Of a stretch of DNA of 64,000 nt, positions 1-60,649 are shown in pieces; within the stretch, counting starts at the first letter, position 1, and the number at the start of each line of letters is the position of its first letter. The DNA is taken from the IMG/VR virus record IMGVR_UViG_3300010391_000110, one strand, 5' to 3'. The position numbers and the translations under genes are program-made. Source of the stretch: an uncultured virus (IMG/VR IMGVR_UViG_3300010391_000110) (taxonomy: Duplodnaviria > Heunggongvirae > Uroviricota > Caudoviricetes). The notes beneath the pieces were generated by a model. The model had not been told where the DNA came from. It saw only the letters and a list, made by a program, of their open reading frames with translations, and searched no databases.

Positions 1-245
1 GCGGTGATCGAGGCGCCCGTGTCGACCAGGGCCTGGACCTCCTCAAGGACCCCGTCCGCGCCCTTGGCCGATGCGCTCGGGAGCCCGATCCGTATGGGAA
101 GGATCGGGCCGCGACGCTGCATCGACATTACGATCTCGCCGGCTTGGCCGAGCGTCAGACGGCGTGGCACAGGCGCGCCCGCCATGCGGATCGGCCGGCC
201 GAGGAGAAACGCCTGACCGAGCCAAGGGCTTTCGTTCAACCTCAT
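1..245 (-). CDS. Retropepsin-like aspartic protease with LGQ-type leader (runs off the window; not in ORF track)
   Basis: Manual translation from ATG 245: MRLNESPWLGQAFLLGRPIRMAGAPVPRRLTLGQAGEIVMSMQRRGPILPIRIG...EEVQALVDTGASIT. ALVDTGAS is the clan AA catalytic motif (DTG at 23..15). Confidence 0.85.
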   Translation of the reverse strand, partial: MRLNESPWLGQAFLLGRPIRMAGAPVPRRLTLGQAGEIVMSMQRRGPILPIRIGLPSASAKGADGVLEEVQALVDTGASIT

Positions 246-247
246 CG

Positions 248-475
248 TTAGATCGTCTCCACGGACTCTGTCTTGGTGACTTCCTTGATCAGGAAGGGCG
301 GCTTGAACCCCGCCACGGCGGCCGCGTTGTAGGCGGCGGCGTAGGTGTCGTACACCTCGACCAGTTCGCCGTTCCGGATGAGCACGAAGTGCCCCTCCAT
401 GTCCTTGGACAGCAGGTCCCCCTTGATCTGCCGGTAGAGGTCATCGTCCTTCGGATTCGCCTGCGGGTCGGCCAT
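248..475 (-). CDS. Small DUF5678-like protein
   Basis: ATG 475 after GGAGG; ...DMEGHFVLIRNGELVEVYDTYAAAYNAA...PPFLIKEV resembles the small proteins often encoded next to retropepsin-like proteases (recognised from memory). Confidence 0.6.
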   Translation of the reverse strand: MADPQANPKDDDLYRQIKGDLLSKDMEGHFVLIRNGELVEVYDTYAAAYNAAAVAGFKPPFLIKEVTKTESVETI

Positions 476-477
476 AG

Positions 478-930
478 CTACTTCCCTCCTGTCCGCAAAA
501 TGCCGAGGCCGAGCAGCGCCAGGCCCGTGACGGCCAGGACGCCGACGACCGTACCGACTGCCGTGACCGTCGGCGTCGCAAAGAATACCGCCTGCGGCTT
601 GATCGGGGCGCCGGGGTCCGGATCCACCACTTCGCCGGACTCCGGGTCGATCGCCAGGAACCGCGCTTTCCCGGGGAGCACCTCGGGTTCCGGTTCCGGC
701 GCGGGTTCCCCTTCGGGTTCGGGTGGCGCCTCGGGCACGACCGCCGGCGTCTCGAGCTCGTCGTCGGGAACGCACTTCTCCCACGGAAACTCCTGGAGGT
801 AGACCTTGGTCGTCCCGGGCCCGCAGTTGAGGTCCACCTGCCCCTCCTCGAGGCCGAGGCGGGGACCGAAGCCGGCAAGGATGACCGGCCTGCCGACGTA
901 TCCCAGACCGTGCCCGTACAGGTCGTGCAT
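478..930 (-). CDS. Membrane-anchored virion-type protein with leader (GLG...PRLG) and C-terminal TM helix
   Basis: 150-aa ORF; Pro/Glu-rich linker; hydrophobic C-terminus VGTVVGVLAVTGLALLGLGILR. Confidence 0.65.
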   Translation of the reverse strand: MHDLYGHGLGYVGRPVILAGFGPRLGLEEGQVDLNCGPGTTKVYLQEFPWEKCVPDDELETPAVVPEAPPEPEGEPAPEPEPEVLPGKARFLAIDPESGEVVDPDPGAPIKPQAVFFATPTVTAVGTVVGVLAVTGLALLGLGILRTGGK

Positions 931-973
931 GCTGAGGTCCTATCCTACTCGGCCAGGCGGACGGGGACAAGCG

Positions 974-1002
974 TTGCATCCATCGTCCACGTGGACTATA
1001 CT
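974..1002 (+). promoter_or_regulatory. Putative sigma70 promoter TTGCAT-N17-TATACT
   Basis: Near-consensus boxes upstream of the 1037..2352 operon; a divergent TTGTCC-N17-TAGGAT lies on the other strand. Confidence 0.55.
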
Positions 1003-1036
1003 CCCTCAACGGCCACGGCACAACAGTGGAGGCCTC

Positions 1037-1252
1037 ATGCTGCTGTCGGAACTGGTCAACGCGATCTACGCTGCCGGATACGACTTCAACACCGCCCAGG
1101 AGGTCCGGCGCTACCTGGTCGAGCGTGATCCGAAGATCGGAGAGGCCATCTTCAGCCAGCCCATGAGCACGGCTCAGGCAGACCCTCTTGTCCCGGACAA
1201 GATGGGCTTCCAGATCCTCGACAAGCTCGACATTCCGTTTGAGGGATCATGA
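1037..1252 (+). CDS. Hypothetical protein
   Basis: GGAGG then ATG 1037; ATGA overlap with the next gene. Confidence 0.6.
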   Translation: MLLSELVNAIYAAGYDFNTAQEVRRYLVERDPKIGEAIFSQPMSTAQADPLVPDKMGFQILDKLDIPFEGS

Positions 1253-2352
1253 GCAAAGGCGTCTACATCGGGGTCCTGGAAGGCGGCGAGCGGACAGCGC
1301 TTCTTAAAAAGGTCCGCGAGCTGCTCCCCCTCAGGCCGTCCGACAAGAGGAAGGCCGTCCTCGCCGCCATCGAGGAGATGGACCAGATCGGGTTCTTCCT
1401 GTCCCCCGACAATACCAAGCTCGGCGGGATCATGAACTTCTCGCTGCCGGCGGGGCAGTGGTTCCGCGACGCGACGTGCCCCGGTGCCACCGAACGGTGC
1501 GAAAAAGTCTGTTACGCGCTCAAGGGGTACATCCAGTGGCAGGAGTACATCTACTACGTCAACTGGGCCTACGTCCTCCTCTGGCCGGAGCGCTTCGCCT
1601 CGGCCTTCAAGCACGCCAAGCTCTCGCCGGTCTTCCGCGTGCATGTGGGCGGCGATTTTTTCGAGCCCTGGTATCTCGACCTCTGGATAGACATCGTCAA
1701 GGCGCGCGACGACGTCCGCTTCTTCGCCCACACGCGCAGCTGGCAGAACGGGGAGGGGCGGATCGCCAAGAGGTTCATCGACCGGCTCCGGACGTTTGCA
1801 GGCCTCCCGAACGCCCGCCTGATCCTGTCTCTCGACAAGGAGACGGGGATCCCGCCCGTGGATCTCGTGCCCGGCGCGATCCGCGCGTGGATGGCCGTCG
1901 ATGACAAAGATATGCCTCCGGAACCCGTCGAGCTCATCTTCCGGCACAAGAAGCAGAGCACGATGGCGCTTTATCCGCGAGATGCAACAAGCCAGGAGGA
2001 TGGCACGACGGTCTGCCCTTACGAGCGGCTTCAGGAGCGCGGGGGCGACGACGCCAAGAAACTCAAGGAAGATTCGATCACTTGCCAGAACTGCGCCTGG
2101 TGCTGGGGGGCGGGGCATCTGGCCTACGGCCGGCGTGAAGACGACCTTTCACGGTTCGACATGTGGGCGGGCGCAGATCTCACGCAGCGCGTGAGCGGGA
2201 TGTTCCGGCAGTTCGTCCCGTGGCGCCAGAAGAAGTCCCCGGAAATGAGCGGCCCTGGCCCTGGAGGCGGAGACGCCGACTGCGCCTGCGGCGCCATGGT
2301 CCCCTGCCTTGGGTGCGGCGCCTGCATCGGGTGTGCCTGCCGATGCCCGTAG
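1249..2352 (+). CDS. GP88-family (Cys-cluster) phage protein with Cys-rich tail
   Basis: NTKLG..NFSLPAG...TCPGATERCEKVCYA and FRVHVGGDF...FFAHTRSW motifs typical of phage GP88 proteins; C-terminal CACG..CLGCGACIGCACRC. Confidence 0.7.
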   Translation: MSKGVYIGVLEGGERTALLKKVRELLPLRPSDKRKAVLAAIEEMDQIGFFLSPDNTKLGGIMNFSLPAGQWFRDATCPGATERCEKVCYALKGYIQWQEYIYYVNWAYVLLWPERFASAFKHAKLSPVFRVHVGGDFFEPWYLDLWIDIVKARDDVRFFAHTRSWQNGEGRIAKRFIDRLRTFAGLPNARLILSLDKETGIPPVDLVPGAIRAWMAVDDKDMPPEPVELIFRHKKQSTMALYPRDATSQEDGTTVCPYERLQERGGDDAKKLKEDSITCQNCAWCWGAGHLAYGRREDDLSRFDMWAGADLTQRVSGMFRQFVPWRQKKSPEMSGPGPGGGDADCACGAMVPCLGCGACIGCACRCP

Positions 2353-2355
2353 GCG

Positions 2356-2616: not shown

Positions 2617-2634
2617 AATGCCGCCCGCCCTCGC

Positions 2635-5828: not shown

Positions 5829-6029
5829 TCAGGTTTTCGCGGGAGACGCCTTTCCAGGGACGATGCGCCCCAGCGACCGGAACCCCCAGGCGACGGCCTT
5901 CGGGAAGGCCATCCAGAGCCACGTGAGCACGAAGCTCGAGCCGGCCAAGCGCCACTCAAACTGACAGAGCAGCGCGCCCGACACCATGAAGCCGACGGCC
6001 GTGACGAGCATCCAGGCGAACGCGATCAC
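5829..6029 (-). CDS. Small two-TM membrane protein
   Basis: Hydrophobic 66-aa ORF, GTGA-coupled to the upstream gene. Confidence 0.55.
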   Translation of the reverse strand: MIAFAWMLVTAVGFMVSGALLCQFEWRLAGSSFVLTWLWMAFPKAVAWGFRSLGRIVPGKASPAKT

Positions 6030-7284: not shown

Positions 7285-7599
7285 CTAAGACCTCCCGGAT
7301 CCTTCGGGCGACTTGCCAAACACAAAAAGATCTATAGCCGCCTCCGCCTCCCTGCGTTCCCGCTCGATGTCGCCGGCAGGACGCCGCACACAGCACGTCC
7401 GACAATGGGGAGCCTGAAGGACACAGTCAGCCAGGCTGCCATGCTCGATCAAGGTCGCGATCTTGCGGCCACCCCAATGGGCGGCTTTCCGGCAGACGCA
7501 GCAGCGCACGACGCCGCCCTTGCCGATCCGACGCAGGTAGACCTTGTACGGGTCTTCAGGCTTCGGGCCGTTCTTGTGGGGAGGCGGATAGTTCATCAT
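7285..7599 (-). CDS. Zn-finger-like hypothetical protein
   Basis: CCVC...HCRTC; ATGA overlap with the upstream gene. Confidence 0.55.
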   Translation of the reverse strand: MMNYPPPHKNGPKPEDPYKVYLRRIGKGGVVRCCVCRKAAHWGGRKIATLIEHGSLADCVLQAPHCRTCCVRRPAGDIERERREAEAAIDLFVFGKSPEGSGRS

Positions 7600-8384
7600 G
7601 CCGCCTCCTGGTCGACCTGCTTGGGCGTAGGGAGCCCCGCCGGCAGTTCGCGCCGAAGGCGCCGGTCGAGCGCCCAGGCGTAGCGGTGATTGCCGCGGTG
7701 GCGCAGGGGGCGGCTGACGATCGGGAGCCAGCGCTTGAGCCAGGCGGCCGGCTCCGCGTCGAGCGTCCCGGCGCCGTAGGACTGGAGCTTTTCGACGGCG
7801 GGCCCCCAGCCGTCCTCCTGGGCGCGGATCTTCTGGATGGTCCGGTCGTTGAACACCGTCCCGTCAGGCAGAAGCCTGAGGGTCCGCGCGGTCGCGCGCC
7901 CCAGATAGGCAGCGTTGGCCGCCTGGTAGATCGTGCCGACGTGGCCTGGAAGCACCAGGCCGCCGGTCGTCGAGCGCCGCGGCATCGGATCGCTGAAGCT
8001 GACGACGCCCCGGATCCGCCCGCGAAGCCGGTCGAACGCGCGCGCCAGGAACCAAGTCTCGCCGTTGCCTGGAACCTCGTCGAGGAGGACGAAGCGCCCG
8101 AGCTCCGTCGCCTCCATGACCTCGCAGGAGGGGAAGACATTCGTGAGCGTGCGGTCGTTCGTGGGGTAGCTGAACATCGCCACGCCCACGAGGATCCCAT
8201 GCCTGTAGAGGCCGAACGAGAACCGGCCCGAAGGGACGCTCCCGGAGTAGTGGTGCCGCTTGATGAACTCGATCGCCACGGGGTCCTTCCCCTTCGGCAT
8301 CTCCGAGACCTCGTACTCGGACGTGCGGATCAGTTCGCCGGCGGGACGCCAGCGGGCCCGGCCTTCTTCCCAGCGCTGATTCAC
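7596..8384 (-). CDS. mom: Mom-like (phage Mu Mom family, GNAT fold) DNA adenine modification protein
   Basis: FIKRHHYSG, FGLY..G.LVGVAMF, ELGRFVLLDEVPGNGETWFLA, VVSFSDP and GHVGTIYQAAN motifs. Confidence 0.8.
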   Translation of the reverse strand: MNQRWEEGRARWRPAGELIRTSEYEVSEMPKGKDPVAIEFIKRHHYSGSVPSGRFSFGLYRHGILVGVAMFSYPTNDRTLTNVFPSCEVMEATELGRFVLLDEVPGNGETWFLARAFDRLRGRIRGVVSFSDPMPRRSTTGGLVLPGHVGTIYQAANAAYLGRATARTLRLLPDGTVFNDRTIQKIRAQEDGWGPAVEKLQSYGAGTLDAEPAAWLKRWLPIVSRPLRHRGNHRYAWALDRRLRRELPAGLPTPKQVDQEAA

Positions 8385-9862
8385 CGAACACCCCCTCTCC
8401 GACCGTACTCCGTGAAGAGGTCAGGCTGCGCGAGCGCGATCCGGGCCAGCTTCGCCCCGAGCTTGCAGAGCGCGTCGTGGTAGGCCTCGCTCAGATGGTC
8501 GCCGCTGAAGTGATGCCCGAACTCATGGACCAGAAGTTCGTCGACCGCCTCGCGCGGCCCCTGATCGAACCACGCATGCCCCAGGCAGGCCAGATTGAAG
8601 GTCAGGGATCCCGGCGCATACCACGCCGCATGGCGCTCCGTGAAGCGGTTCACGATCCTGACGTGGAGGGTCGTGTCGAGAAGAAGGCTCCCGATCATGT
8701 GGGCGTATTTGAAAACCTGCGTCATGCCGTTCGTCCACTTCTCGAGCGGCACCTCGTCGTCCTTCCCGCCGCCGCTCTCGAGCACCTTAGGCGACGGGGT
8801 CACCTGGCCGGCGGGGAGCGCGGCCTCGTGGCGCCTCACGTTCGCCCACTCGTCCCTGGAGAGCGAGCCGCCGTGGATCACCGTGTAGCCCTGGGACATC
8901 GCGAGCTTCGTCCCTTCTGGGTCGGTCAGATCGGAGATCACCCGCTTCTCCCCGAAGCGCTGGGTGACGACGTGCTTGATCGCGGCCGAAGAGATGTCCT
9001 CGTCTTCGGCGGCGTCGCGGACCCACGGGGCCGTCGCCTCCTCCTGCTGGACCTCCTTGTACATCTCGTTCAGGACGAGCGTCCGGATCTCCTGCAGGTA
9101 GGCCGGGGTCACGTTGTCGCGGTCGGAGTTGAGGGGGACCTTCTGCATGACGTTGTAGTGCCACTTGTCGGCGGTCTCGACAACGGGGATCCCCATCTCG
9201 TAGACCGAGGCCGTCTCCCCCTGGAGAGGCTCAAAGACCTCGATGGCCGTCTTCCTGGCCGACCGGCGCAGGACGCCCTCGGCGTCCGCGATCTCGGTCG
9301 GCAGCGTCGCCTCGATCCGGCGTAGCGGCGTCCGGGCGGGCAGGATCGTGGCGCCGTTGAACGTGGTCACGACCCCGGCGGGAGGGATGAGCTTCATGAA
9401 CGCCGCCGCAACGGAGACGCGCTCCTCCTGGTTCATCCGCACCAGGGCCAAGAACCTGGAACCCGTCTCGCGCTTGGTCCGCAGCGCACGCCGGCCGTCG
9501 ACGTCGAAGGCCACTCCTCCGGTCGTCGTCTCGATGCTGGCCGTGCGGCAGAGTGCCAGGACGAGCTTCTCCCCAAGGTTGAAGCGGCCCCGCTTCTCGG
9601 CGTCGGCCTTCCTGTCGCTCTCGGCGTAGAGCGTCCAGGCGTGGGCGAGGTCCTTCCAGCCGTCCGGATGGTCGTCGATGACCTCGATCTGGGCGTAGCC
9701 CTTGATCTCGGAGCGGCGCAGCGAGACGTCGACCTTCTTAGCGTTGGTGTCCCAGCTGTTCTGGAGCAACTCGTAGAGGATGAACTCCTTGCCCTTGCGC
9801 TCCATGAGCTTGGCAAGGCCCTCCTTGTCGACCTGGAACCAAGATGCGGTGGGGACCGTCAC
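8381..9862 (-). CDS. GHKL (HSP90/MutL-like) ATPase fused to a C-terminal HExxH metallopeptidase-like domain
   Basis: ELLQNSWD, IDDHPDG and GRFNLGEK motifs; C-terminal LVHEFGHH...DH; likely start GTG 9862 overlapping the upstream TGA. Confidence 0.8.
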   Translation of the reverse strand: MTVPTASWFQVDKEGLAKLMERKGKEFILYELLQNSWDTNAKKVDVSLRRSEIKGYAQIEVIDDHPDGWKDLAHAWTLYAESDRKADAEKRGRFNLGEKLVLALCRTASIETTTGGVAFDVDGRRALRTKRETGSRFLALVRMNQEERVSVAAAFMKLIPPAGVVTTFNGATILPARTPLRRIEATLPTEIADAEGVLRRSARKTAIEVFEPLQGETASVYEMGIPVVETADKWHYNVMQKVPLNSDRDNVTPAYLQEIRTLVLNEMYKEVQQEEATAPWVRDAAEDEDISSAAIKHVVTQRFGEKRVISDLTDPEGTKLAMSQGYTVIHGGSLSRDEWANVRRHEAALPAGQVTPSPKVLESGGGKDDEVPLEKWTNGMTQVFKYAHMIGSLLLDTTLHVRIVNRFTERHAAWYAPGSLTFNLACLGHAWFDQGPREAVDELLVHEFGHHFSGDHLSEAYHDALCKLGAKLARIALAQPDLFTEYGRRGGVR

Positions 9863-10230
9863 AGCGCACCGCCCTTCGCGCTGTCCTCCGGGATCAGGAT
9901 CTCCACCCAGTCGCTGATGAGGCGGCCGGGCCTGGCGCCCTGCCAGAAGCGGCCGTTGTAGGAGAAGTGTCCGATCGTCTTCTTGCCGAGCTTGACGATG
10001 GGGCAGCCCCAGTTGCCGCCTCCGAGTTCCCACTTGTTCCGGTAGGCCTCGGCATGGGAGCGCATCTCGGCGAGCGTCAGGCCCGTGGCGACTTCCGGTT
10101 CGCTCACCGGGGCGTACTGCCCGAAGTCAGGGTTCCCGTAGCTCCGGAGCTTCATCGTGAAGCCACCGGCCTTCCGGACCTCCTCCGGCGTGAACGACAG
10201 CGTGACCTGCTTGACCGTGTCCGTGTCCAT
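9859..10230 (-). CDS. Conserved phage hypothetical protein (GNPDF...GGGNW...SYNGR)
   Basis: ATG 10230 with SD GGAGGGG; first gene behind the 10.37-kb promoter. Confidence 0.7.
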   Translation of the reverse strand: MDTDTVKQVTLSFTPEEVRKAGGFTMKLRSYGNPDFGQYAPVSEPEVATGLTLAEMRSHAEAYRNKWELGGGNWGCPIVKLGKKTIGHFSYNGRFWQGARPGRLISDWVEILIPEDSAKGGAL

Positions 10231-10253
10231 GACCGACCCCTCCGTGTTTCCCG

Positions 10254-10368
10254 TTGTCCCGGGCGCCGCGGCGCAGGCTCCATCCGATCGAGGGTGTGAA
10301 AGGACTCGACGAGGACGGCCCACGCCGCGACGCCTGGGACAAGAAGAAACGCCGAGCCCTTTCACGCC
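10254..10368 (-). ncRNA. Structured 5' leader with two interleaved long helices
   Basis: 10368-10350 pairs with 10311-10293 (19 positions, 2 GU, 1 mismatch); 10342-10323 pairs with 10273-10254 (20 positions, 1 GU, 1 mismatch). Confidence 0.6.
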
Positions 10369-10369
10369 A

Positions 10370-10401
10370 TGAGTTTACTGCGTATACTCACGCGGAGTCA
10401 A
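10370..10401 (-). promoter_or_regulatory. sigma70 promoter TTGACT-N18-TAAACT with overlapping palindromic operator
   Basis: TGAGTTTAC-TGC-GTATACTCA; ~50-bp near-identical copy at 12523-12572. Confidence 0.8.
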
Positions 10402-10443
10402 GGGGAATCGGCTATCTCATAGTGAGTTTCTCCGGCCGTTAGC

Positions 10444-10809
10444 TTAGAGATACCCCTGTATGCTCGCCACGCGCTCGACCTGGTCCGCCAGGGCGGTGAG
10501 CTGACGGACGTCCGTCGACAGCTGACCTGTCCGGTCGCCGCGCTTGACCGTCTCCTCCCACCGGGCCTCGGCACGAAGCGCGTCAGCGAAGGCCTTGAAG
10601 TCGGGCCGGCCGTTCAGGGTGCATCGGCCGTCCTGGAGTTCGGCGACTTGACTCTCGAGCTGTGCGAGCTCCTTGTCGTAGCTCTCGCAGAGCTCGCGCC
10701 AGCCTTCGACGGTCTTCGGCTCGCAGGAATCCCTGAGCTTGGACATGAAGCCCTGGACTTCCCGGAGGACGACCTCGCGGTGCTCCGGAGGTATCATGTT
10801 CCCGCTCAT
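10444..10809 (-). CDS. Coiled-coil hypothetical protein
   Basis: Likely start ATG 10809. Confidence 0.5.
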   Translation of the reverse strand: MSGNMIPPEHREVVLREVQGFMSKLRDSCEPKTVEGWRELCESYDKELAQLESQVAELQDGRCTLNGRPDFKAFADALRAEARWEETVKRGDRTGQLSTDVRQLTALADQVERVASIQGYL

Positions 10810-12102
10810 GCCCGCACCGTGACGGCGCGCTTGTAGACGAGCGCGGCCAGGACCGCCCAGCAGAAGACGGTCCCGGCGAGCTGGAGGGCATCCCATCCCG
10901 CCAGGCACGCGTTCACCGTCTGGATGCCACAGACCGCTCCCTGGATGCAGATCCAGGTCATCAGGGGTTGCTTCATGGTCAGACCTCCAATCTTAGGCGA
11001 CTACTCTACCCCCTGCGCGAATTCGGCCTCGTCACTTTGCGCGATCTGTCTCGCCGTCTCCTTGGCCCCGTAGAGGTCTAGCCCCTTATCGCAAAGCTCG
11101 TCGCAAGTGCAGGACTTGCAACCATCCCGATGCGCCCTGTACGCAGCGGCCGCCAGTTCCTTCACGTTCGGTTCGGGCATCTCGATCATCTGTAATTCTC
11201 CTTTTCCCAAGTTCAGTCAGTCCAGTTCTTTAGCGAACCAGCGACTCGTCGATCCGGATCCCGAGACGCGCAAGCGCCTCGATCGATTTCGGGTGAAGCC
11301 CGCACGCCTCGCACAGGTGGACCTGCTCGATCAGTTCTCCGTCAGCCTTCGTGACGCTGACCGAAAGGACCGCCTTCCTCTCACACTCGCATTTCCTCTC
11401 GTTCCGCATGCTTTCCTCCCTTTACGGCTTCGCGTGGACGCTCTCGGGGTAGTACCTCTTCCACCAGCAACTCGCGTGGAAGTCGCCGTCCTTGGTTCTC
11501 ACCCAGTCCCCATCGATCCTGAGTTTGCAATCCGCGCACGGTGAAGGGGGCCTGGGCCTCTTGCCGGTTCTTCCTGGCATATCAAGCGTTCGCCTTTCCG
11601 CTCTGCCCGATCCGCGCCGCCGCCAGCGCGCGGGCCTTCTCCTTTTCGTTCGCGAACCTGTTGTCGGGGACTTCCCAGCCTTCGGCGCAGGCCCGGCAGA
11701 TGCCGGTCTTGCTTTCGGGGGGCCCGAAAAGCGGAACGTTGCACGCCTCGGTGACCGTCTCGCTACGCCCCTTGCCGGTCTTGCCCGTCACGAGGTCAAG
11801 CGTCCCGTGGGTCCGCCTGAACGTCCGCATGACGGTGCAGGAGTTGTGGTAGCGGCGCTTCATGGCTGCACCTGGACCTGGCTCTCTTCCCTCTTCCCCA
11901 GCGCTTTCTGCTTCTCCAGCGCTTCCTTCTTCTCGAGCTCGACGCAGTAGTCCTGCCAGTGCCTCCAGCAGTACCTCTGCTGAAGTCCCTTGGCGTCCAG
12001 GAACTGGAGGCCGGCCCCGGGGTCCAGGGCCTGGCGGCACTTCGGGCGCGTGCAGTGCGTCGAGTTCCAGCCGTCGTCGTCCATGGAGTCTCTCTGCTTC
12101 AT
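10806..12102 (-). other. Run of small genes: one two-TM peptide (10806..10976) and several Cys/His Zn-finger-like peptides (e.g. 11001..11210, 11582..11863, 11860..12102)
   Basis: Coupled short ORFs with CxxC/HxxC pairs and SD sites; some fall below the ORF-track cut-off. Confidence 0.55.
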
Positions 12103-12104
12103 GG

Positions 12105-12503
12105 CTACACCAGTCCCGCGCAGACGGGGCCGATCCCGGTCTTCACCGACTCGGGATTCGTCAGGTGCCGATTGCAGACCAGGCAGCGGCCGTCCAGCAT
12201 GAACTCGTAGTTCTTGGCCCACGGCGAGAGCCCGGCGTCGAGGGAGAGGCTCCAGAGCATCTCGGCGTATTTCCCCCAGATCTCCCCCTGCTTGGCCTTC
12301 GACGTCCAGACGCGGATGCCCTCGTCCGCCACGAAGGCGAAGCCCGTGTAGTCGTGATCGTTGTCGGACCCCGTCAGGAGCCCGAGGATCCGCTGCCCGG
12401 ACGCGAACTCAGCGTCCTTGGGTTGCGTGTGGATCCGGAACGTCCGATGCTCCCCGGTGACACGGGATTTGAGCGTGTAGAAGCCGTTGAAAATTTTCGC
12501 CAC
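12105..12503 (-). CDS. DUF6011-like protein
   Basis: C-terminal GRCLVCNRHLTNPESVKTGIGPVC motif; SD GAGGAGG. Confidence 0.75.
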   Translation of the reverse strand: MAKIFNGFYTLKSRVTGEHRTFRIHTQPKDAEFASGQRILGLLTGSDNDHDYTGFAFVADEGIRVWTSKAKQGEIWGKYAEMLWSLSLDAGLSPWAKNYEFMLDGRCLVCNRHLTNPESVKTGIGPVCAGLV

Positions 12504-12538
12504 AAGCCCTCCTCGTCGTTAAGAGTCCTTTCACGCCA

Positions 12539-12570
12539 TGAGTATACTGCGTATACTCAAGGCAAGTCAA
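12539..12570 (-). promoter_or_regulatory. sigma70 promoter TTGACT-N18-TATACT with perfect palindromic operator TGAGTATAC-TGC-GTATACTCA
   Basis: Read directly; operator 12539-12559 overlaps the -10 box and spacer. Confidence 0.85.
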
Positions 12571-12602
12571 GGACAAATCGACGGGCCGTGGCGGGGCAGG
12601 CG

Positions 12603-13178
12603 TCAGGCCGGCTTTCCGTCGGGAGCCTGCGCCGGGGGGGCGTCCGGAGCGGGCGCGAGCGCGAACCCAGGCACCTTCTGGGCCACGGCCTCGAAAAGCC
12701 GAAGCATGGATCGGTAGCGGCCGGGATCGTACTCGTCCGGCCCACCGAAGGGCAGTTTGGCCAGGTCGACGAGCACCGTCCCGCGCGGGGTGAGGTAGGC
12801 CTTGCTCGTGCCGTCTTGGTAGAGGACCTGGGCGCCGCCGGCGCGCCGCATCCGGATCCGCGCAGCCTCCTCCGCGAACCACTGGCGGGTGGGCACGTCG
12901 GCAGCGATCTCTGGATTCCCCGCCCACTCGAGGATCCAGCATTCCTGGCAGAGGAAGCCGCCCTGGTGCGGGCCGCCCTTGAACGGGACGCTCGAAGGTT
13001 TCCGATGGACCGGGGCGCCGCACTGCGCGCACATCGTCGGGACCGGCGCGCCGCCCTGGAGGAGGAGCGGGTTCCCGATCTTGAGCGGCCCGCCCGGAGG
13101 ACGCAACTCCCCGAGAGGGGCTGCAGGGACGACCTTTCTCACCTCCGGGGCGCGCTGGATGTTGACGTCGTCGCTCAC
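12603..13178 (-). CDS. Zn-finger-containing hypothetical protein
   Basis: CAQC...CQEC; GTGA overlap. Confidence 0.6.
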   Translation of the reverse strand: MSDDVNIQRAPEVRKVVPAAPLGELRPPGGPLKIGNPLLLQGGAPVPTMCAQCGAPVHRKPSSVPFKGGPHQGGFLCQECWILEWAGNPEIAADVPTRQWFAEEAARIRMRRAGGAQVLYQDGTSKAYLTPRGTVLVDLAKLPFGGPDEYDPGRYRSMLRLFEAVAQKVPGFALAPAPDAPPAQAPDGKPA

Positions 13179-29970: not shown

Positions 29971-30120
29971 TTCTTTCCGTGGTGCAGTAGGCGGTGCGGT
30001 TCTCCGTGGTGAGGTCCGCGGCGCGGCGACAAGGAGCCGCGTCGCGAAGAGGTGCTGTCCGAGCGGTCGCAGTAGTACGTGTGCGTGACCTTTGACCTCT
30101 TTTTGACGGAGAACGTCGCA

Positions 30121-30840
30121 ATGCAAAACAACTATCGCTTCGTGGCGCCCGAATACGCGGCGCTGATCAACCCCACGGCCTGCTCCGCCTTCGCCATGCG
30201 GTGCGAGGGCCGCTCGGACATCAAGCAGCGCTCGAGCGTGTCCACCGGCACGGTCCTCGACGGCACGGCCCTGTCGGCCGAGATCGTCAACGAGACGACC
30301 GAGAACGCGGTCTGCGACGCCAAGATGTTCGTGACCCCGTTCGTCGAACTCTGGAACGACGTCAGCCTCGGCTACGGCTGCCGCTTCGTGACGGCCAAGC
30401 TCAACTTCTCGATCGACGGCGAGCCGGTCGTCCAGGACAGCGCGGTGAACAACCACCTGCTCTGCCCGGCGTGCCTGGTGGCCCGCCAGCCGACCGACGC
30501 CCTCACCGTGCTGATCGGCTGCGGCTGCGAGCTGGCCCTCCTCGGCATGTGCCAGATGTTCTTCTTGCCCAACGGCACGCGGATCCTGGCCACCCTCTCG
30601 GACATCCCGACGGGCGGCGGCGACCTGTGCCTGAACGGCGGCGTGATCCTGGTGAACTACACCACGAAGGTCAGGCAAGGCTGCCTCTTTTCGGTGGGAG
30701 CCTTGGACGCGAATGCTCAGGCTTTTGCCGTCCACTACCCCTGCAACTCCTCGTTCGCGGCCCCCGGCGGCGGCACCGAGTCGGTGCCCCTCTCCGGCCC
30801 GGCGGCCGGCCCGAGCTTCGGCCCGGCCAACGTCGGCTAG
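30121..30840 (+). CDS. Candidate major capsid protein (beta-rich, 12 Cys)
   Basis: Strongly C/G-ending codons, SD GGAG, flanked by strong hairpins, beta-strand-like pattern. The capsid assignment is an inference. Confidence 0.45.
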   Translation: MQNNYRFVAPEYAALINPTACSAFAMRCEGRSDIKQRSSVSTGTVLDGTALSAEIVNETTENAVCDAKMFVTPFVELWNDVSLGYGCRFVTAKLNFSIDGEPVVQDSAVNNHLLCPACLVARQPTDALTVLIGCGCELALLGMCQMFFLPNGTRILATLSDIPTGGGDLCLNGGVILVNYTTKVRQGCLFSVGALDANAQAFAVHYPCNSSFAAPGGGTESVPLSGPAAGPSFGPANVG

Positions 30841-33113: not shown

Positions 33114-34679
33114 ATGGTTGCGCCTACCACCATCGACTTCGTCCCGGGCCTCGACGACGTCGCGTCCGTAGACCGGATCCTACGCAGGAACATTCAGGTC
33201 CCGGTCAAGCTCGTCTCGGCCCCCTATCTCGCGACCGTCCTCGACTGGAACGTCTGCGGGGACGCGACGCTTGGGGCGTTCACGGTCAGCCTCCCGTCAG
33301 CCGTTGGCCTCGACGGGATGTGCTTCGAATTCAAGAAGATCGACGCCTCGGCATTCTTTGTGACGGTCGATCCGTTCGGCGCCCAGACGATCGACGGGGC
33401 CCTCACGGTCGACCTCAAAAAGCAGTACGACTGCGTCGTCATCCGCTCCGACGGGGCCAACTGGAAGAAGATCGCGGGCATCGGCAGCCAGATCGTCTTG
33501 GGCGGCGCGGGCTCCCTCTGGGGGAACACGATCTTCATCGACATCGTGAACGGGAACGACGCGACCGGAGTCCGTGGGGATTCGGCCTTCCCGTTCCTCA
33601 CGGTCGCGGCGGCGATCGCGGTCGCGCTGGCCGGGGACACGATCTTCGTCCGGCCGGGCGTCTATACCGTGGCGGCGTTCGCGCTGCCCGCCGATGTCGC
33701 GATCGTCGGGCTGGGCGGCCCCCAGTCGGTCGTCTTCACCGCGACCGTTGCGGCCAACACCACCCTCATCAACATGGCAAACGACGCCCGGATCCAGAAT
33801 GTGGAGATCCGGCTCCTGTCGGCGGATCACTTTACCCTCACGGCCGTTCGCTTCGCAGGCTCCCAGTCGGCTTCGGCGCAACTCGTCGACTGCGTCGTGG
33901 TGGTGGACAACGGATCTGCCGGAGGCGGCGGGAGTTCGGACCTCACCGGACTCGACCTTGGGGCGACGGGGAACACCCAGCACAACGAATGCGTCCAGAG
34001 GGTCCGTGTCTTCGTCCGGTCGACCGGTCAGGGGACGAAGCGCGGGATCCACGCCCAGGCGAGCGGCGAGGTCGCCGTCCGGGACATGGCCGTCCGCGTC
34101 GAAAAGCAGGGCGGAGGGACGGCCTCTTACCGCGGGGCGGAGACGACGGCTGCTTCCACGGTTCTCATCCTGAAGGGCGGAATCATCGACGCGACCGTGC
34201 AGGGCGGTAGCGCTTCAGTCCACGACGACATCCTTCAGTCGGCCGGGGTGATCCAGCTTGAGGACACGTCCCTCGTCAACAACGACGCGGGCGGCCTCGG
34301 CTTCATCTCGCCCTATTCGAGCTACGAGGAGACGTGGTTCTCCGAAGGTATCGTCAACGCGGCGGCCCGGTTCCTCTTCCCCGGAACCGCGATCCCTTCG
34401 GCAAATGAGATCTTCCGGGCGGTCATCCGGCCGACCCTCATCAAAGCCATGCGGGTCAGGGCGCGGGTGGCCTCGGGTGGCGGTAACTCCACGACATGGA
34501 CGCTACGCAAGAACGGCGCAGCGACCGGGATCACCGTCACGATCGCGGGAGGCACGACCGAGGCGACCATCACGACGGTCTCGGTCGCGTTCGCGATTGG
34601 CGACGACATCTCGATTCAGCAGACCCAGACGGGTGGCTCGGCCGCGACCGACATCGCGGTCTGTTTGGAGAATTACTAA
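33114..34679 (+). CDS. Spike / receptor-binding protein with beta-helix domain
   Basis: TVSLPSA...FKKID...QTIDG...SDGANW fibre module; NGNDATG...PFLTVAAAI...GDTIFVRPGVY beta-helix start. Confidence 0.75.
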   Translation: MVAPTTIDFVPGLDDVASVDRILRRNIQVPVKLVSAPYLATVLDWNVCGDATLGAFTVSLPSAVGLDGMCFEFKKIDASAFFVTVDPFGAQTIDGALTVDLKKQYDCVVIRSDGANWKKIAGIGSQIVLGGAGSLWGNTIFIDIVNGNDATGVRGDSAFPFLTVAAAIAVALAGDTIFVRPGVYTVAAFALPADVAIVGLGGPQSVVFTATVAANTTLINMANDARIQNVEIRLLSADHFTLTAVRFAGSQSASAQLVDCVVVVDNGSAGGGGSSDLTGLDLGATGNTQHNECVQRVRVFVRSTGQGTKRGIHAQASGEVAVRDMAVRVEKQGGGTASYRGAETTAASTVLILKGGIIDATVQGGSASVHDDILQSAGVIQLEDTSLVNNDAGGLGFISPYSSYEETWFSEGIVNAAARFLFPGTAIPSANEIFRAVIRPTLIKAMRVRARVASGGGNSTTWTLRKNGAATGITVTIAGGTTEATITTVSVAFAIGDDISIQQTQTGGSAATDIAVCLENY

Positions 34680-37025: not shown

Positions 37026-37448
37026 GTGAATCTTGGAGCCGTGAGACTCGCGTCGCCCGGCCTGCGGCAGGGCGTGCGCATGGGCCAGGCCAAATCCGCC
37101 CTGCTCGTGATGGTCACGCTCGACGGCGGGGCCGCCATGGACGTGCCTCTCGAGATCCTCTACTCGGACGGGTCGAACGTCCAGGGGAAGACGGGCGCCG
37201 CGGGCTTCTTCGAAGCCCCTTACGGCCCGACCCAGTACGGGCCGGCCATCGTCCGGATCTCGCCGCCCCCGGGTGTCGAGGACATCGGGGAAGGCACCGC
37301 GCAGCCGGCCGAACTCACCGCCGCCGGCGTCAAGGTCTCGTTCGCCCTCACGTCGCGTCCGGCCGCCGACAGCGCCAAGCGCCCAGACAGCACGACGGTC
37401 GCGCTCGTGACCGCCGCGCTCCTGGTGGCCGTGGGGATCAGCCTCTAG
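37026..37448 (+). CDS. Leader-bearing, C-terminally TM-anchored protein
   Basis: MNLGAVRLASPGLRQGVRMGQ...; TM end. Confidence 0.7.
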   Translation: MNLGAVRLASPGLRQGVRMGQAKSALLVMVTLDGGAAMDVPLEILYSDGSNVQGKTGAAGFFEAPYGPTQYGPAIVRISPPPGVEDIGEGTAQPAELTAAGVKVSFALTSRPAADSAKRPDSTTVALVTAALLVAVGISL

Positions 37449-38562: not shown

Positions 38563-39132
38563 ATGCCTTATGCTGCGAGCTTCCGTCCGGCGGCGCACGG
38601 CGCCTTCCTCCCTCAGGTGCGTCTGGCGGGATCCATGACGCGCCAGGTGGCCTACCCGGTCCAGCCGTTCCTGGGCCAGGTCCGCATGGGCGTCACCACC
38701 GAGGAGTGGTACAAGCGGGCGAGCGCCTCGCTCGAGCGCTACCGCTTCCTCAAGAGCCAGATCCAGTCGGTCAACAACGACGTCGGCCGCCAGAGCCTGA
38801 CGATGTGGCTCGGCACCATCGCCGTCGACGAGTCGCCGGAGTACCGCTACGCCACGGTGCTCAGCGACTTCAACGACGCCAAGAAGACCGGCCTGACGGT
38901 CTACGACATCGACCGGCGCACGGGCCGCATCGAGAAGCTCGAGAACATCAACGACCAGTTCAACCAGAAGATCGAGGCCGCCCGGATCAGCTACGGCACC
39001 CGCGACGTGCCCGCCACGACGCCTCCGGGCGGAACCCCGGGCGGGCAGCAGCCGCCGACCAAGACCCCGGACCTGACGGTTCCGCTCCTGGTCGCCGGCG
39101 CCGCGGTCGCCGTGGCCATCATCTTCGGGTAG
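38563..39132 (+). CDS. Leader-bearing, C-terminally TM-anchored protein
   Basis: SFRPAA...PQVRLAG...FLGQVRMG leader; TM end. Confidence 0.75.
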   Translation: MPYAASFRPAAHGAFLPQVRLAGSMTRQVAYPVQPFLGQVRMGVTTEEWYKRASASLERYRFLKSQIQSVNNDVGRQSLTMWLGTIAVDESPEYRYATVLSDFNDAKKTGLTVYDIDRRTGRIEKLENINDQFNQKIEAARISYGTRDVPATTPPGGTPGGQQPPTKTPDLTVPLLVAGAAVAVAIIFG

Positions 39133-39145: not shown

Positions 39146-39520
39146 ATGCAACTCGCCTACCATCCGGCGCCGCCTGGGCGCCGCGCTGCATGGAAGCCGG
39201 CCGCCATGCGCGGGCCGTTCCAACTCAGCCAGACAAACTCCGAAGAGTTCGGCATCGGGGACGTGCTCATGCCGATCATACGCCTCGGTGCCGCGGGCGC
39301 CGTCGCATACGTGGGGATGCACGCGGCCCTGAACCAGAAGGGGATGCTTTCGGCCCTGGGTTGGGTCGCGTGGGCCGCCGGATTCTTCTCGGCCTTCTCC
39401 ACGCTCGGGGGGCTCTTCATGATGGGGGCGACCCCGAAGTCCTCCCTGGAGCCCGTGGTCGTGTCCGCGCCGACTCCGGCCGCGCCGACGACGGTGCCTT
39501 CGGGGCCCATGGAATTCTGA
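39146..39520 (+). CDS. Leader-bearing two-TM protein
   Basis: AWKPAA...FQLSQ leader; two TM helices. Confidence 0.7.
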   Translation: MQLAYHPAPPGRRAAWKPAAMRGPFQLSQTNSEEFGIGDVLMPIIRLGAAGAVAYVGMHAALNQKGMLSALGWVAWAAGFFSAFSTLGGLFMMGATPKSSLEPVVVSAPTPAAPTTVPSGPMEF

Positions 39521-39758: not shown

Positions 39759-41960
39759 ATGAACGGTGTCGCGCCTGGCGGCGCCGTGCCGGTCGTCAAC
39801 TTCCTCCCGGCGCGTGGCGATGCTCGGCGCGGCGCATGGCTGAGAAATTCGGGGGTCCCCGTGGGACTCCCCCTCCAGCCGCGCTTCGGACTCGGACAGT
39901 TTGCCTGGACCCCGCCTCCGACCGGAGACGCGACCGCCACCAAGTGCTACCACTGCGGGCTGCAGGGGTATCGCCTCATGACCCCGACGATGGCTGCCAT
40001 GGTCCCGGGCGGCTGCACGGAGGTGGATGCGACGCTTTGCGCACCGGCCACTGCGCCTGCGCCCGCTCCGACGGGAGGAACTCCCTGGCCGGGGACCGCT
40101 CCCGCGCAGGCCCACTGGACGGACGGGCCGACCCGGATCAACGTCCTCGTGTTCGAACCCGGCGAACTCAAGCCGTACACGGCCGCCGTCCCGGTCATCA
40201 TCTCGGTCTACAAGTACACGGCCATAGGCGCGGCCGTCACGGAAGTGACCCGCGGCACGACCGGCCCCGACGGCCGGTTCACCTGGCAGGGGTCCGCCCC
40301 GAGCGCGAACAAGGACTATCATTTCCGCGTGCAGGTGCAGGCGCCGGGCAACGCGAAGACGCTCGACGTGGCAGCCCGGCTCGCCCACATCATGGGAGCT
40401 GGGGGCGGCGTCGTATCCGAGAGTTCCCTCACCGTCGTGGCCTGTCCGTCCGGAACCGACTCGCTCGTCTGCGCGGTCGCGCAGGCGCAACTCGACTGGA
40501 AGCAGATCTACGACTCCCAGATCGTGGCCTGGGGGAATTCCACGCAGGCCCAGGGGTTCGCGGCGGACATGGCGCATGCGAACGTGCCGCTCACCCACCC
40601 CGCTCTCAAGGCGAGGTGGGACGTGTACAGCTGGTGGCTGGGCGACCGCGGGATCCCGCCCAAGGATTGGCCTCATCTCGACCGTGAGTTCACCCGGACG
40701 TGGAAACTCTTCGCCACGATCCCGTTCCCGCGCTGGCCGGAGATCGAGGACCTCTTCACGAACTGCTGCAAGGGCGTCCCCATCGGGCAGGGGAAGGACA
40801 ATGCGCGCTACGGGGTCGCCTCCCCGAGACTCTACTCGAAGACCTGGTCGGACTACTTCCCCAGGACCGACAAGCAGATCCTCAAGGATATGGCCGCGGC
40901 TTACCTGCTGGCTCTCGGGTCGATCTTCAGGTGCATGGAGCACAAGATCAGGCGGAAGGCTGCGGATACGGAGCGAACCATCAAGAAAATGGCGCTCATC
41001 TCCTACGCCATAGTGCTCGTCAACCTGCCGTGGCTCATCGCCGCCGGGCCCGGAGGCATCGCCGCGCTTGCGACCGAGACCTGGGACTTCGTCCAGATTA
41101 TGCAGGGAGGGTCAGCCCTCGGATACGGCACAAGCGCCGCGATCGCCGCGGCCGCGATGGCGGCCGGGGATCCAGCTCTGGTCGTGGCCGCGCTCGAGCC
41201 GATCATCAACGAGATCCTCGGCACGGCGGACCCAGCTGTGGCCGCGGCCATCAAGGCGATCTATCCGCAGGTCGTCGGCCTGGCGATGTCCGCCGTGGGG
41301 TCCATCGCCGGCGCTTCCGTGCAGCAGGGGTCGAACGTCATCGCCAACGGCGCGTCGAGTTTCCTCGATCTGTCGACGATCGCGTCGGCCATTGCGGTCA
41401 TGGCCGTCAAAGCGATGGCTGCGGTCCCGAAGATGATCGCCGCCGAGAAGATCGAGCAGTTCCATGACGCCGCTAACAGTATGAACCTCGCCGCGGTCGA
41501 CGTGCTCAACTACGTGGCCGGCGAGGAAGTCTCGCCGATCTTCAAGCCGTTCCTCGTGTGGGTGGTCGAGGCGATGGGACTTCTCGACCTGTTCAGTCAG
41601 GCTATCGACCAGTTCCTCGACCAGTTCCAGCAGTCCCTCGCGGTGGGGGACCAGCAGGGCGGAGGCGTGACGGTCGTGCCCGAAGAGGGCGGAGGCGGCC
41701 CGGCCATCGCTCCCACGGACCCGGACGGCGTGCCGACCGACGTGAACGGAAATCCGCTTCCCGGGGGCGAGGCTCCGCTCACCCCTCCGTCCGGCGGCGG
41801 GCAGGTGCCTGGGTCACCGTCCCCGGACATGCCTGACATGCCGATGGAAACGACCACGAGCGGCATCGGCGGGGTGGGCGGGACAAGCCCCGTGACTGCG
41901 ATCGGCGTGGGCGGAGGTGCAGCAGCGCTTCTCCTTGTGGTGGGGAGTGTGCTATCATGA
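39759..41960 (+). CDS. Large leader-bearing membrane protein
   Basis: ...QPRFGLGQ leader; Ala-rich hydrophobic core; C-terminal TM. Confidence 0.75.
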   Translation: MNGVAPGGAVPVVNFLPARGDARRGAWLRNSGVPVGLPLQPRFGLGQFAWTPPPTGDATATKCYHCGLQGYRLMTPTMAAMVPGGCTEVDATLCAPATAPAPAPTGGTPWPGTAPAQAHWTDGPTRINVLVFEPGELKPYTAAVPVIISVYKYTAIGAAVTEVTRGTTGPDGRFTWQGSAPSANKDYHFRVQVQAPGNAKTLDVAARLAHIMGAGGGVVSESSLTVVACPSGTDSLVCAVAQAQLDWKQIYDSQIVAWGNSTQAQGFAADMAHANVPLTHPALKARWDVYSWWLGDRGIPPKDWPHLDREFTRTWKLFATIPFPRWPEIEDLFTNCCKGVPIGQGKDNARYGVASPRLYSKTWSDYFPRTDKQILKDMAAAYLLALGSIFRCMEHKIRRKAADTERTIKKMALISYAIVLVNLPWLIAAGPGGIAALATETWDFVQIMQGGSALGYGTSAAIAAAAMAAGDPALVVAALEPIINEILGTADPAVAAAIKAIYPQVVGLAMSAVGSIAGASVQQGSNVIANGASSFLDLSTIASAIAVMAVKAMAAVPKMIAAEKIEQFHDAANSMNLAAVDVLNYVAGEEVSPIFKPFLVWVVEAMGLLDLFSQAIDQFLDQFQQSLAVGDQQGGGVTVVPEEGGGGPAIAPTDPDGVPTDVNGNPLPGGEAPLTPPSGGGQVPGSPSPDMPDMPMETTTSGIGGVGGTSPVTAIGVGGGAAALLLVVGSVLS

Positions 41961-43997: not shown

Positions 43998-44291
43998 GTG
44001 AAGATCCGCGTCACCGGCTGAGAACTGTCCGGACTCGTCAGGCCCGTCGGGCCCGTCACGATCGAGAAGACCAAGGTGGTCCAGAAGGACGTCCTCGTCG
44101 CCAAACTCTCCGGGGCGGCGCAGGGTACGATTGCTGTTGTGCGCGACGCCAAGCACAACTATCATGTGGTGGCTCCGAAGGAGCTCGGAGGAACGCGGGC
44201 CGTTCCCGCGGATTCCCTCACCGACTGTCTGCATCAGGCGGTTTACGAGATATCGGAAGCGAAGAAGAGCCGAGGAGGTCGGAAGCGATGA
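43998..44291 (+). CDS. Small protein with in-frame TGA at codon 8 (candidate selenoprotein)
   Basis: SD GGAGGAG, GTG 43998; MKIRVTG*ELSG... is in frame with ORF 44076..44291. Confidence 0.7.
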
Positions 44292-49876: not shown

Positions 49877-49937
49877 CGGAACGTCTTGCATCCAAGGGCG
49901 GTCACGGTAGAATTGCTGAAGGTTGAGGGGAATGGAC

Positions 49938-56508: not shown

Positions 56509-56516
56509 GGGGACGC

Positions 56517-57191: not shown

Positions 57192-57195
57192 GCCG

Positions 57196-57915: not shown

Positions 57916-57928
57916 GACGGAGGAAGGC

Positions 57929-60617: not shown

Positions 60618-60649
60618 CGGACCTCGAGCATAGCCGGAATAGCCTGAAG

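Follow-up and report, generated by a model that had tools for sequence, protein, structure and literature searches.

A retropepsin-like protease gene coupled to a DUF5678-like gene on a phage-like element, and an N-terminal leader that may mark its substrates among co-encoded membrane proteins

The stretch of DNA analyzed here, referred to as the window, was a 64-kb sequence (64,000 nucleotides; 65.7% GC; no N) from IMG/VR record IMGVR_UViG_3300010391_000110, an uncultured virus. At its left end was an operon of three minus-strand genes, the last of which encoded the N-terminal part of a retropepsin-like aspartic protease. This analysis concerned the protease, the small DUF5678-like protein encoded directly upstream of it, and an N-terminal leader built of short sequence units, which the protease appeared to share with about ten predicted membrane proteins encoded at 37-52 kb. 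The pairing of a DUF5678 protein with a retropepsin is a known but uncharacterized cassette.

The protease operon and the protease family

The operon was read from 930 to 478, 475 to 248, and 245 to 3 on the minus strand. It encoded a membrane protein, the DUF5678-like protein, and, last, the protease, and its genes were separated by 2-nucleotide spacers. The operon and the features within the protease gene were as follows.

3..245 (-): retropepsin-like (clan AA) aspartic protease, N-terminal 81 codons, open at the 3' end (family search, alignment of relatives, and AlphaFold2 [AF2] model of a relative)
213..224 (-): leader unit 1, W-L-G-Q, residues 8-11; aligned with S-A-W-L-G-R/Q of the nearest relatives
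177..194 (-): leader unit 2, P-I-R-M-A-G, residues 18-23; top score (14.8 bits) with matrix A, derived from outside relatives
144..164 (-): leader unit 3, R-R-L-T-L-G-Q, residues 28-34; lies 41 residues ahead of the catalytic Asp and is a candidate site of self-release
9..23 (-): catalytic motif D-T-G-A-S, residues 75-79; invariant columns across 38 aligned sequences
248..475 (-): DUF5678-like small protein, 75 amino acids; coupled translationally with the protease gene and predicted to bind the protease (homology and complex model)
478..930 (-): first gene of the operon, 150 amino acids, C-terminal membrane segment (membrane prediction); residues 44-141 resembled the C-terminal part of the 39759 protein (E, 2.6e-4)

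The protease open reading frame (ORF) of 81 amino acids overran the left edge of the window, and its GC content at third codon positions (GC3) was 0.83. A first-pass annotation of the window had pointed to a minus-strand ORF from 245 with W-L-G-Q and R-R-L-T-L-G-Q ahead of A-L-V-D-T-G-A-S-I-T. The listed translation confirmed this reading, with W8-L-G-Q11, P18-I-R-M-A-G23, R28-R-L-T-L-G-Q34, and A72-L-V-D75-T-G-A-S-I-T81. The start codon was an ATG at 245, located 2 nucleotides past the TAA of the upstream gene (250..248), with a GGAG sequence 11 nucleotides upstream; in the alignment, it matched Met-1 of the relatives. The gene order in metagenome contig L001 was membrane protein, one extra small ORF, small protein, and protease. 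In metagenome contig L003, the order was small protein and protease, and this contig also encoded a relative of window gene 5832..6029 (identified by eye). The metagenome scan for protease relatives yielded three short contigs only. An exact 50-mer from the start of the window had no match in the viral, genome, or metagenome contig collections, megablast of window positions 1-6000 against phages gave no match, and scanning 1..1400 for promoters and terminators gave no useful information.

The first-pass annotation had described an operon with a DUF5678-like gene and a leader-bearing transmembrane protein. The three coupled genes and the DUF5678-like assignment (by homology, see below) stood, but the leader of the 478..930 protein did not. 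Its stretch G-R-P-V-I-L-A-G (residues 13-20) had a noise-level score with the leader profile (E, 4.3), and we counted it as not conserved because homology to the L001 relative began only at residue 22. This protein was left out of the count of leader carriers. Its residues 44-141 resembled residues 619-719 of the protein encoded at 39759..41960 (28% identity; E, 2.6e-4), a sequence likeness that may loosely tie the operon to the 37-52 kb block.

Only the first strand and the catalytic loop of the protease fell inside the window, and the 81-residue fragment by itself accordingly matched nothing in Pfam or PHROG. A scan of 50%-identity representatives with this single fragment produced 5 matches only, of which P0001 and P0002 were repeat proteins and P0005 was a chimera. 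A profile of the first true relatives matched 784 proteins at an E value of 1e-3 or less (8,000 candidates scored), and the family counts given here rest on 120 relatives listed among the 784. Among the matches listed, P0048 and P0060 came closest, each with 65% identity to the fragment, followed by P0056 with 59%; the aligned relatives spanned 34-65% identity. Full-length relatives were about 165-185 amino acids long. In the case of the P0005 chimera (112 amino acids), the first ~56 residues corresponded to the protease leader and first strand and the remainder to a metal-sensitive repressor (PF02583; E, 5.6e-7); it was probably an assembly or gene-call artifact or a decayed gene.

The assignment to the retropepsins, made at first pass from the catalytic motif, was supported by the invariant D-T-G-A-S and by the domain matches and predicted fold of the relatives. 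P0003 and P0004 passed PF13650 (31.5 and 29.8 bits; cut-off, 24.3), and P0004 passed RVP (PF00077) as well (25.7 bits; cut-off, 20.7). When the family profile was compared with PDB sequences, the retropepsin domain of DDI1 was matched at an E value of 3.3e-4, and the protease of human T-lymphotropic virus (HTLV) and ApRick were also found. The AF2 model of P0056 had a mean predicted local distance difference test (pLDDT) score of 78.5, with residues 1-34 below ~55, a helix at 35-45, and a retropepsin-fold core at ~90. In Foldseek searches with this model, the top PDB matches were ApRick, Ddi1, and the proteases of xenotropic murine leukemia virus-related virus (XMRV), equine infectious anemia virus (EIAV), feline immunodeficiency virus (FIV), human immunodeficiency virus type 1 (HIV-1), and HTLV; 141 matches had an E value of 1e-3 or less. 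The model also matched several metagenomic phage proteins labeled 'aspartyl protease / retropepsin-like' in a viral structure library. The C-terminal G-R-D-like motif, on which the first-pass identification had been made to depend, belongs to the part of the gene beyond the left edge of the window and was assessed by proxy: L-I/V/L-G-R-N/D was present in all 37 aligned relatives (read from alignment blocks; G and R flagged as at least 90% conserved). TIGR02281 (cut-off, 57.95 bits) was failed by P0056 (22.2 bits), P0006 (24.0 bits), and P0084 (15.4 bits).

Searches of other collections for related gene contexts yielded little. A tblastn search of P0056 against phages had no match, and in the IMG/VR scan with the first alignment (A1), 0 of 18 candidates were protease relatives. 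The IMG/VR scan with alignment A4 found 29-30% identical relatives only (L006-L008). The scan of GTDB yielded L004 and L005, and L004 was rejected as a spurious match inside an ORF of >1000 amino acids. In L005, from a Dehalococcoidia genome, 9953..10810 (+) contained two tandem leaderless small retropepsin-like genes of 152 and 126 amino acids, seemingly located between two tryptophan-pathway-like genes (by eye). The leader-type protease was not found in IMG/VR or in GTDB representative genomes at the sensitivity used; it was present on metagenome contigs, which were as long as 170 kb. A search for longer, polyprotein forms returned 1 protein, which is weak evidence against the existence of such forms.

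Leader units in the protease family and in membrane proteins at 37-52 kb

In the protease family, the leader consisted of the units W/F-L-G-Q, V/I-R-L/M-A-G, and R-R-x-x-L-G-Q. A profile of the leaders from 31 outside relatives matched residues 1-35 of the window protein at an E value of 5.7e-11. At least 58 residues preceded the catalytic Asp in 109 of the 120 listed relatives. Between 40 and 62 residues upstream of this Asp (mode, 50), the pattern [LM]GQ was found in 60 of the 109 and [LMI][GAS][QEA] in 90 of the 109, and an R or K was located within six residues before the motif in 86 of these 90. The strict pattern was absent from all 545 control windows downstream of the Asp. In 20 of 20 aligned fused forms, the motif was the junction between the DUF5678 and protease domains, and a variable Q-rich linker often came next. 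The P0056 AF2 model predicted that the extension was disordered as far as the motif. The N-terminal motifs of the protease are thus beyond chance, as the match to the leader profile shows. A reading of R-R-x-F-L-G as a twin-arginine export signal was rejected; a helix and the protease core came next, with no hydrophobic stretch.

Distant proteases (35-38% identical to P0006) started with M-x(2-6)-F-L-G-Q-V-R-L/M or F-L-P-R-V-R-L-G-Q and had a second L/M-G-Q later in the sequence. Specifically, P0104, P0107, P0108, and P0096 began with F-L-G/P-Q/R-V-R-L/M, which was the unit seen in two window proteins, 38563 and 43043 (proteins of the window are named here by the first coordinate of their genes). 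In P0104 and P0106-P0109, the N-terminal F-L-G-Q-V-R unit was followed by a 70-100-residue Gln/Gly/Ala-rich low-complexity linker and then by the protease core.

The carriers of the units in the window were encoded by the following plus-strand genes.

37026..37448 (+): leader-bearing membrane protein, G-A-V-R-L-A-S and G-V-R-M-G-Q-A (N-terminus, matrices, and membrane prediction)
38563..39132 (+): leader-bearing tail-anchored protein, A-F-L-P-Q-V-R-L-A-G and P-F-L-G-Q-V-R-M-G (N-terminus, matrices, family alignment, and model)
39146..39520 (+): membrane protein, weaker leader P-F-Q-L-S-Q-T (N-terminus and membrane prediction)
39759..41960 (+): 733-amino-acid multi-pass membrane protein, R-F-G-L-G-Q at residue 41 (N-terminus, matrices, and membrane prediction)
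43043..43660 (+): leader-bearing tail-anchored protein, V-L-G-Q-V-R-L-A-Q and S-R-P-I-L-G-Q-A (best score with matrix B, 17.6 bits)
44288..44755 (+): leader-bearing membrane protein, S-M-P-Q-V-R-L-A-Q (N-terminus, matrices, and membrane prediction)
46180..47130 (+): membrane protein, weaker leader S-M-L-A-Q-T at residue 4 (N-terminus and membrane prediction)
48571..49233 (+): leader-bearing membrane protein, Y-R-A-R-L-G-Q-T (N-terminus, matrices, and shared words)
49923..50729 (+): leader-bearing membrane protein, A-F-M-P-Q-V-R-L-A-G-A; paralog of 51513 and weakly of 44288 (N-terminus and matrices)
51513..52325 (+): membrane protein, weaker units P-R-L-R-L-L-G and R-A-S-L-A-Q-I (N-terminus and matrices)

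The first-pass annotation had stated that the protease and other proteins of the window had a leader in common, and searches built from outside sequences bore this out in excess of shuffled controls. Two scoring matrices, one for unit 2 and one for unit 3, were derived from outside protease relatives only to avoid circularity. With the unit 2 matrix, 49923, 38563, 44288, and 43043 ranked directly behind the protease. Four N-terminal matches reached at least 10 bits, whereas 300 shuffles gave 0.61 on average and never more than 3; another three matches of at least 10 bits were located outside N-termini. With the unit 3 matrix, 43043 ranked first in the whole window, at 17.6 bits compared to 14.6 bits for the protease itself. 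Words common to the window N-termini and the outside leaders were counted as well, using the last 45 residues of long leaders, so that N-terminal units of the P0104 type were missed. There were 51 common 5-mers (500 shuffles, 27.3 +/- 5.7; maximum, 45) and 8 common 6-mers (500 shuffles, 1.95; maximum, 7). The hexapeptide P-Q-V-R-L-A occurred in three window N-termini.

A motif inventory that covered the first 90 residues, with a pattern written after the data were seen, placed units in 10 proteins encoded on the plus strand from 37,026 to 52,325 and in 1 protein elsewhere (the helicase); five matches were outside N-termini. All 10 carriers had a predicted membrane segment, compared to 27 of 78 genes overall. 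The carriers were alike mostly in the leader alone. Only 49923, 51513, and 44288 were paralogs (49923 and 51513, E of 8e-15; 44288 and 49923, E of 4e-4), so at least eight unrelated families carried the leader, and common descent of all carriers was rejected as an explanation. A DNA repeat was likewise rejected: the units differed at synonymous codon sites, which placed the conservation at the protein level. In the family of 38563, both leader units were invariant in 8 of 8 members and the spacer between the units varied in length. The model of 38563 (mean pLDDT, 61.6) was disordered to residue 42 and continued with a helical bundle, a linker, and a membrane helix.

The DUF5678-like partner and the surrounding element

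The 75-residue window protein had no Pfam match, even at an E value of 10 or less (cut-off of PF18929, 23.2 bits), and its orthologs in L001 and L003 were below the PF18929 threshold at 16.8 bits (E, 0.006) and 18.3 bits (E, 0.002), respectively. The window protein shared 38% identity with the N-terminal domain of P0070, one of the fused relatives (E, 4e-11), and the fused relatives P0084 and P0088 passed both PF18929 (27.7 and 29.8 bits) and the protease Pfam model. In total, 20 aligned relatives consisted of a DUF5678-like domain fused to the protease, and 17 of the 20 ended in a hydrophobic tail (read from the alignment). By homology, and without a direct Pfam match, the small protein of the window is classed as DUF5678-like.

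A complex of P0006 with its own neighboring small protein was modeled with one protease copy and with alignments of our own. The model scored 0.81, compared to 0.01 for the best of three controls. A score this high was obtained for 116 of 157 solved complexes and for 2 of 215 mismatched pairs, a comparison that is rough here because we used our own alignments. Contacts agreed by at least 97% between runs, and the pLDDT of the partner was at least 91. On the P0006 side, the interface included the catalytic Asp84 and residues 86-91, 103-112, 136-143, and 153 and 155 (L-I-G-R-N motif), and the last six residues of the partner were also in contact. A PDB sequence search with the partner found no relative, so it is unlikely that the complex score merely reproduced a known structure. 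The model suggests that the DUF5678-like partner likely binds the protease and covers its catalytic face.

Pairs of DUF5678 proteins and retropepsins were widespread in bacteria and archaea, outside viruses, and were at times fused. In L006, an IMG/VR contig, 9717..12857 contained a leaderless DUF5678-like and retropepsin pair beside an opposite-strand gene for a 601-amino-acid coiled-coil ATPase-like protein, and these surroundings looked like a defense island. The PADLOC candidate defense protein PDC-M08B had weak matches to P0056 (E, 0.0047; 14.9 bits) and P0006 (E, 0.043), and the DUF5678-like partner and the operon membrane protein had no PADLOC match. Our literature search found no study of the DUF5678 and retropepsin cassette or its substrate.

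The element as a whole looked like an unclassified, phage-like element of about 78 kb; the contig on record for the window copy of 38563 was 78,431 bp long. Genes of the minus-strand arm (1-24.4 kb) encoded GP88-like and ParB-like proteins, two helicases, Mom, a DUF6011 protein, an exonuclease, an HNH endonuclease, a D5-type primase-helicase, and an AAA_24 protein. The GP88-like protein was encoded at 1249..2352 (+; PF17338; E, 9e-23), the Mom-family protein at 7596..8384 (-; PF25680; E, 6e-26), and the DUF6011 protein at 12105..12503 (-). The primase was at most 32% identical to that of any known phage, and no close phage is known. An early suggestion that a second structural cluster continued to the left of the window was not supported; the operon lay at the end of the replication arm, with GP88-like, ParB-like, and helicase genes as neighbors, and what followed the protease gene in L001-L003 were genes for small proteins that lacked the leader units and looked hydrophobic by eye.

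The plus-strand arm started at 25.5 kb. Its ~30 consecutive predicted proteins between 25545 and 55552 (+) had no Pfam or PHROG match except for weak tail-fiber and beta-helix hints in 33114..34679, and 30079..30837 had no match in the ESM Atlas. No terminase, portal, or capsid protein was recognizable among the window proteins scanned against Pfam and PHROG. The leader-bearing proteins had initially been called structural, a label that the analysis did not support; the ten carriers were predicted membrane proteins without Pfam or PHROG match. The genes at 56382..64000 (+) encoded glycosyltransferases, an NAD-dependent epimerase/dehydratase, a GT-D-like protein, and an FkbM-type methyltransferase; their base composition was that of the rest of the window, and they could be viral genes for glycan modification or part of a host flank. 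Base composition was even along the window, and no tRNAs were found in it.

A possible role for the leader units

We propose that the leader motif is the recognition or cleavage site of the protease, used for self-release and for trimming membrane-protein precursors. This proposal is tentative, and we give it a little less than an even chance. According to the proposal, the protease would be made with a disordered N-terminal extension of ~35 residues composed of aromatic-L-G-Q, V/I-R-L/M-A-G, and R-R-x-x-L-G-Q units, and it would cut off its own extension at or beside the R-R-x-x-L-G-Q unit. In the fused relatives, the protease would free itself from the DUF5678 domain at this unit. Equivalent extensions would be removed by the protease from the ~ten membrane-protein precursors encoded at 37-52 kb, and the N-termini of the tail-anchored precursors would face the cytoplasm. 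The DUF5678-like protein would cap the catalytic-loop face of the protease monomer and thereby delay activity until the right moment. Retropepsins usually cut between a pair of hydrophobic residues. Because they prefer hydrophobic residues on both sides, the scissile bond may be the one between the Leu of the unit and an aromatic or aliphatic residue before it.

As the first-pass annotation had suggested, the protease was the best candidate for the enzyme that would trim the ~ten membrane proteins, and to judge from the sequences a processing role is plausible. It was the only recognizable protease among the window proteins scanned: no other was recognizable among 55 distinct window proteins scanned against Pfam, and the prohead maturation protease families (HK97 gp4, T4 gp21, and ClpP type) had no Pfam or PHROG match among the scanned proteins.

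Several observations weighed against the proposed processing role. The invariant L-G-Q is no usual retropepsin pair, and the residue before Leu varied (M, F, I, T, Q, R, and G). The protease operon was part of the replication arm, away from the genes for the leader-bearing proteins. The cassette, common in cellular genomes and found in L006, occurred there without the leader or the membrane-protein cluster, which suggests that its core function is independent of these substrates. The unit 3 enrichment was modest, with 5 N-terminal matches of at least 8 bits, whereas shuffles averaged 1.27 and reached up to 6. When the whole-leader profile was run on the other window proteins, the best real-frame E value was 0.62 and a wrong-frame ORF reached 0.3; at this noise level, the likeness lay in short units and not in a homologous domain. 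Finally, the complex model contained a single protease copy, so the partner may just have filled the empty dimer face.

Some of these observations would suit another explanation, namely that the protease and its DUF5678-like neighbor are an accessory cassette complete in itself (toxin-antitoxin-like, defense, or counter-defense) that the element would simply carry, with the motif serving the cassette's own regulation and the membrane-protein N-termini being recognized otherwise or convergent. The broad distribution of the pair in bacteria and archaea, with occasional fusions, is in keeping with such a cassette, as are the leaderless pair beside the ATPase-like gene in L006, the weak match to PDC-M08B (E, 0.0047), the inhibitor-like way in which the modeled partner covered the catalytic face, and the position of the operon in the replication arm. 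However, a self-contained cassette leaves unexplained why matrices built from outside proteases picked the N-termini of contiguously encoded membrane proteins above shuffles, why distant proteases started with the unit of 38563 and 43043, and why the operon membrane protein resembled 39759. On balance, we regard this explanation as rather unlikely.

A targeting or assembly role for the units is, in our judgment, unlikely. The units would be a tag that binds a common receptor (a scaffold, shell, membrane-insertion, or sorting factor), and the protease would carry the tag for co-delivery and cut elsewhere. The two or three unit copies per leader in the protease, 38563, and 43043 would suit avidity binding, and the invariance of the 38563 leader in 8 of 8 relatives goes beyond the needs of a throw-away propeptide. 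All of the carriers were membrane proteins, and L-G-Q is atypical for a retropepsin site. A processing site, however, is better suited by the location of the motif at the DUF5678/protease junction in 20 of 20 fused forms and at a set distance from the Asp in 90 of 109 relatives, and no candidate receptor for a tag was identified. Chance resemblance, in which the disordered N-termini of a 66% GC genome, rich in Arg, Gly, Leu, and Gln, yield LGQ-like strings, is disfavored and very improbable: LGQ did occur 4 times outside N-termini and the whole-leader profile gave noise on other proteins, but the unit 2, 5-mer, and 6-mer counts exceeded those of all 300-500 composition-preserving shuffles, the matches were clustered in one gene block, P-Q-V-R-L-A recurred in three N-termini, and the units were conserved in relatives from other samples.

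Comparison of the proposed leader processing with known systems brought out likenesses and differences. The retroviral proteases (HIV-1, XMRV, EIAV, FIV, and HTLV-1; MEROPS A2) have the same fold, one D-T-G-A loop per chain, and a C-terminal G-R-N/D; like the window family, they have a flexible pre-core segment with a conserved site, and the fused relatives place the protease behind another domain in polyprotein style. In contrast to them, the window protease had a gene of its own, located on a bacterial, phage-like element; identity in structural alignments was ~17-28%, and the family had a basic-x-x-L-G-Q flanking motif and a dedicated DUF5678-like partner. The uncharacterized cassette of DUF5678 (PF18929) and PF13650 resembled the window operon in gene order, tight coupling, fused forms, and the homologous small protein. 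The generic cassette (L006 and L005) was leaderless, whereas the window subfamily had a long, unit-built leader that was also present on ~ten membrane proteins; in addition, the small protein of the window was below the Pfam threshold.

Three further protease systems were compared as well. The Rickettsia conorii protease APRc (ApRick) is described as self-processing and as membrane-embedded via its N-terminal domain. It has a bacterial single-lobe retropepsin fold like that of the P0056 model (PDB 5c9b, 5c9d, and 5c9f; Foldseek E, 4e-5), but its sequence likeness was weak (E, 0.21), and it has neither a DUF5678 partner nor a shared leader. The prohead proteases of tailed phages (T4 gp21, with its capsid-targeting sequences, and HK97 gp4) are serine proteases with an assemblin-like fold, and their genes lie between those for portal and capsid. 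The processing proposed here would be similar in logic, with a co-delivered enzyme removing a short N-terminal signal from several unrelated proteins; unlike these enzymes, the window protease was a retropepsin in the replication arm, the carriers were membrane proteins, and no capsid genes were recognizable. Type IV prepilin peptidase has a polytopic membrane fold. It is an aspartic leader peptidase that trims a short common N-terminal leader of membrane-anchored proteins, as is proposed for the window protease, but its fold is unrelated and its leader motif is different; the protease here would be soluble in the close subfamily or, in fused relatives, C-terminally anchored.

Two reports mention related proteases in prokaryotic settings: a retropepsin-domain protease is listed as an auxiliary gene of a marine megaphage (bioRxiv 10.1101/2021.07.26.453748), and a retropepsin-like bacterial protease is described in the RimABK ribosome-modification system (PMC11957791). 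A literature search on retropepsin, phage, and capsid maturation found no retropepsin-type leader or maturation protease of a prokaryotic virus. The proposed processing can be extended to a retrovirus-type protease that acts as the maturation enzyme of an unclassified, membrane-protein-rich bacterial virus, with the modular leader (aromatic-L-G-Q-V-R-L/M ... R-x-x-L-G-Q) as both assembly ticket and cleavage site and the DUF5678-like protein as a timed inhibitor. We consider this extension doubtful; if it were true, the system would be unlike any described for prokaryotic viruses, and the widespread cassette would have a first function.

The locus is of interest because the defined candidate recognition motif and the proposed set of substrates are directly testable. 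It provides a substrate hypothesis in which a motif at the protease's own boundary is repeated on ~ten co-encoded membrane proteins. If cleavage occurs as proposed, the cassette would gain a recognition site and a regulator (the small partner), and the unannotatable block at 37-52 kb could be marked as one functional set. Leader-peptide maturation of the retroviral type would then be present in a prokaryotic mobile element.

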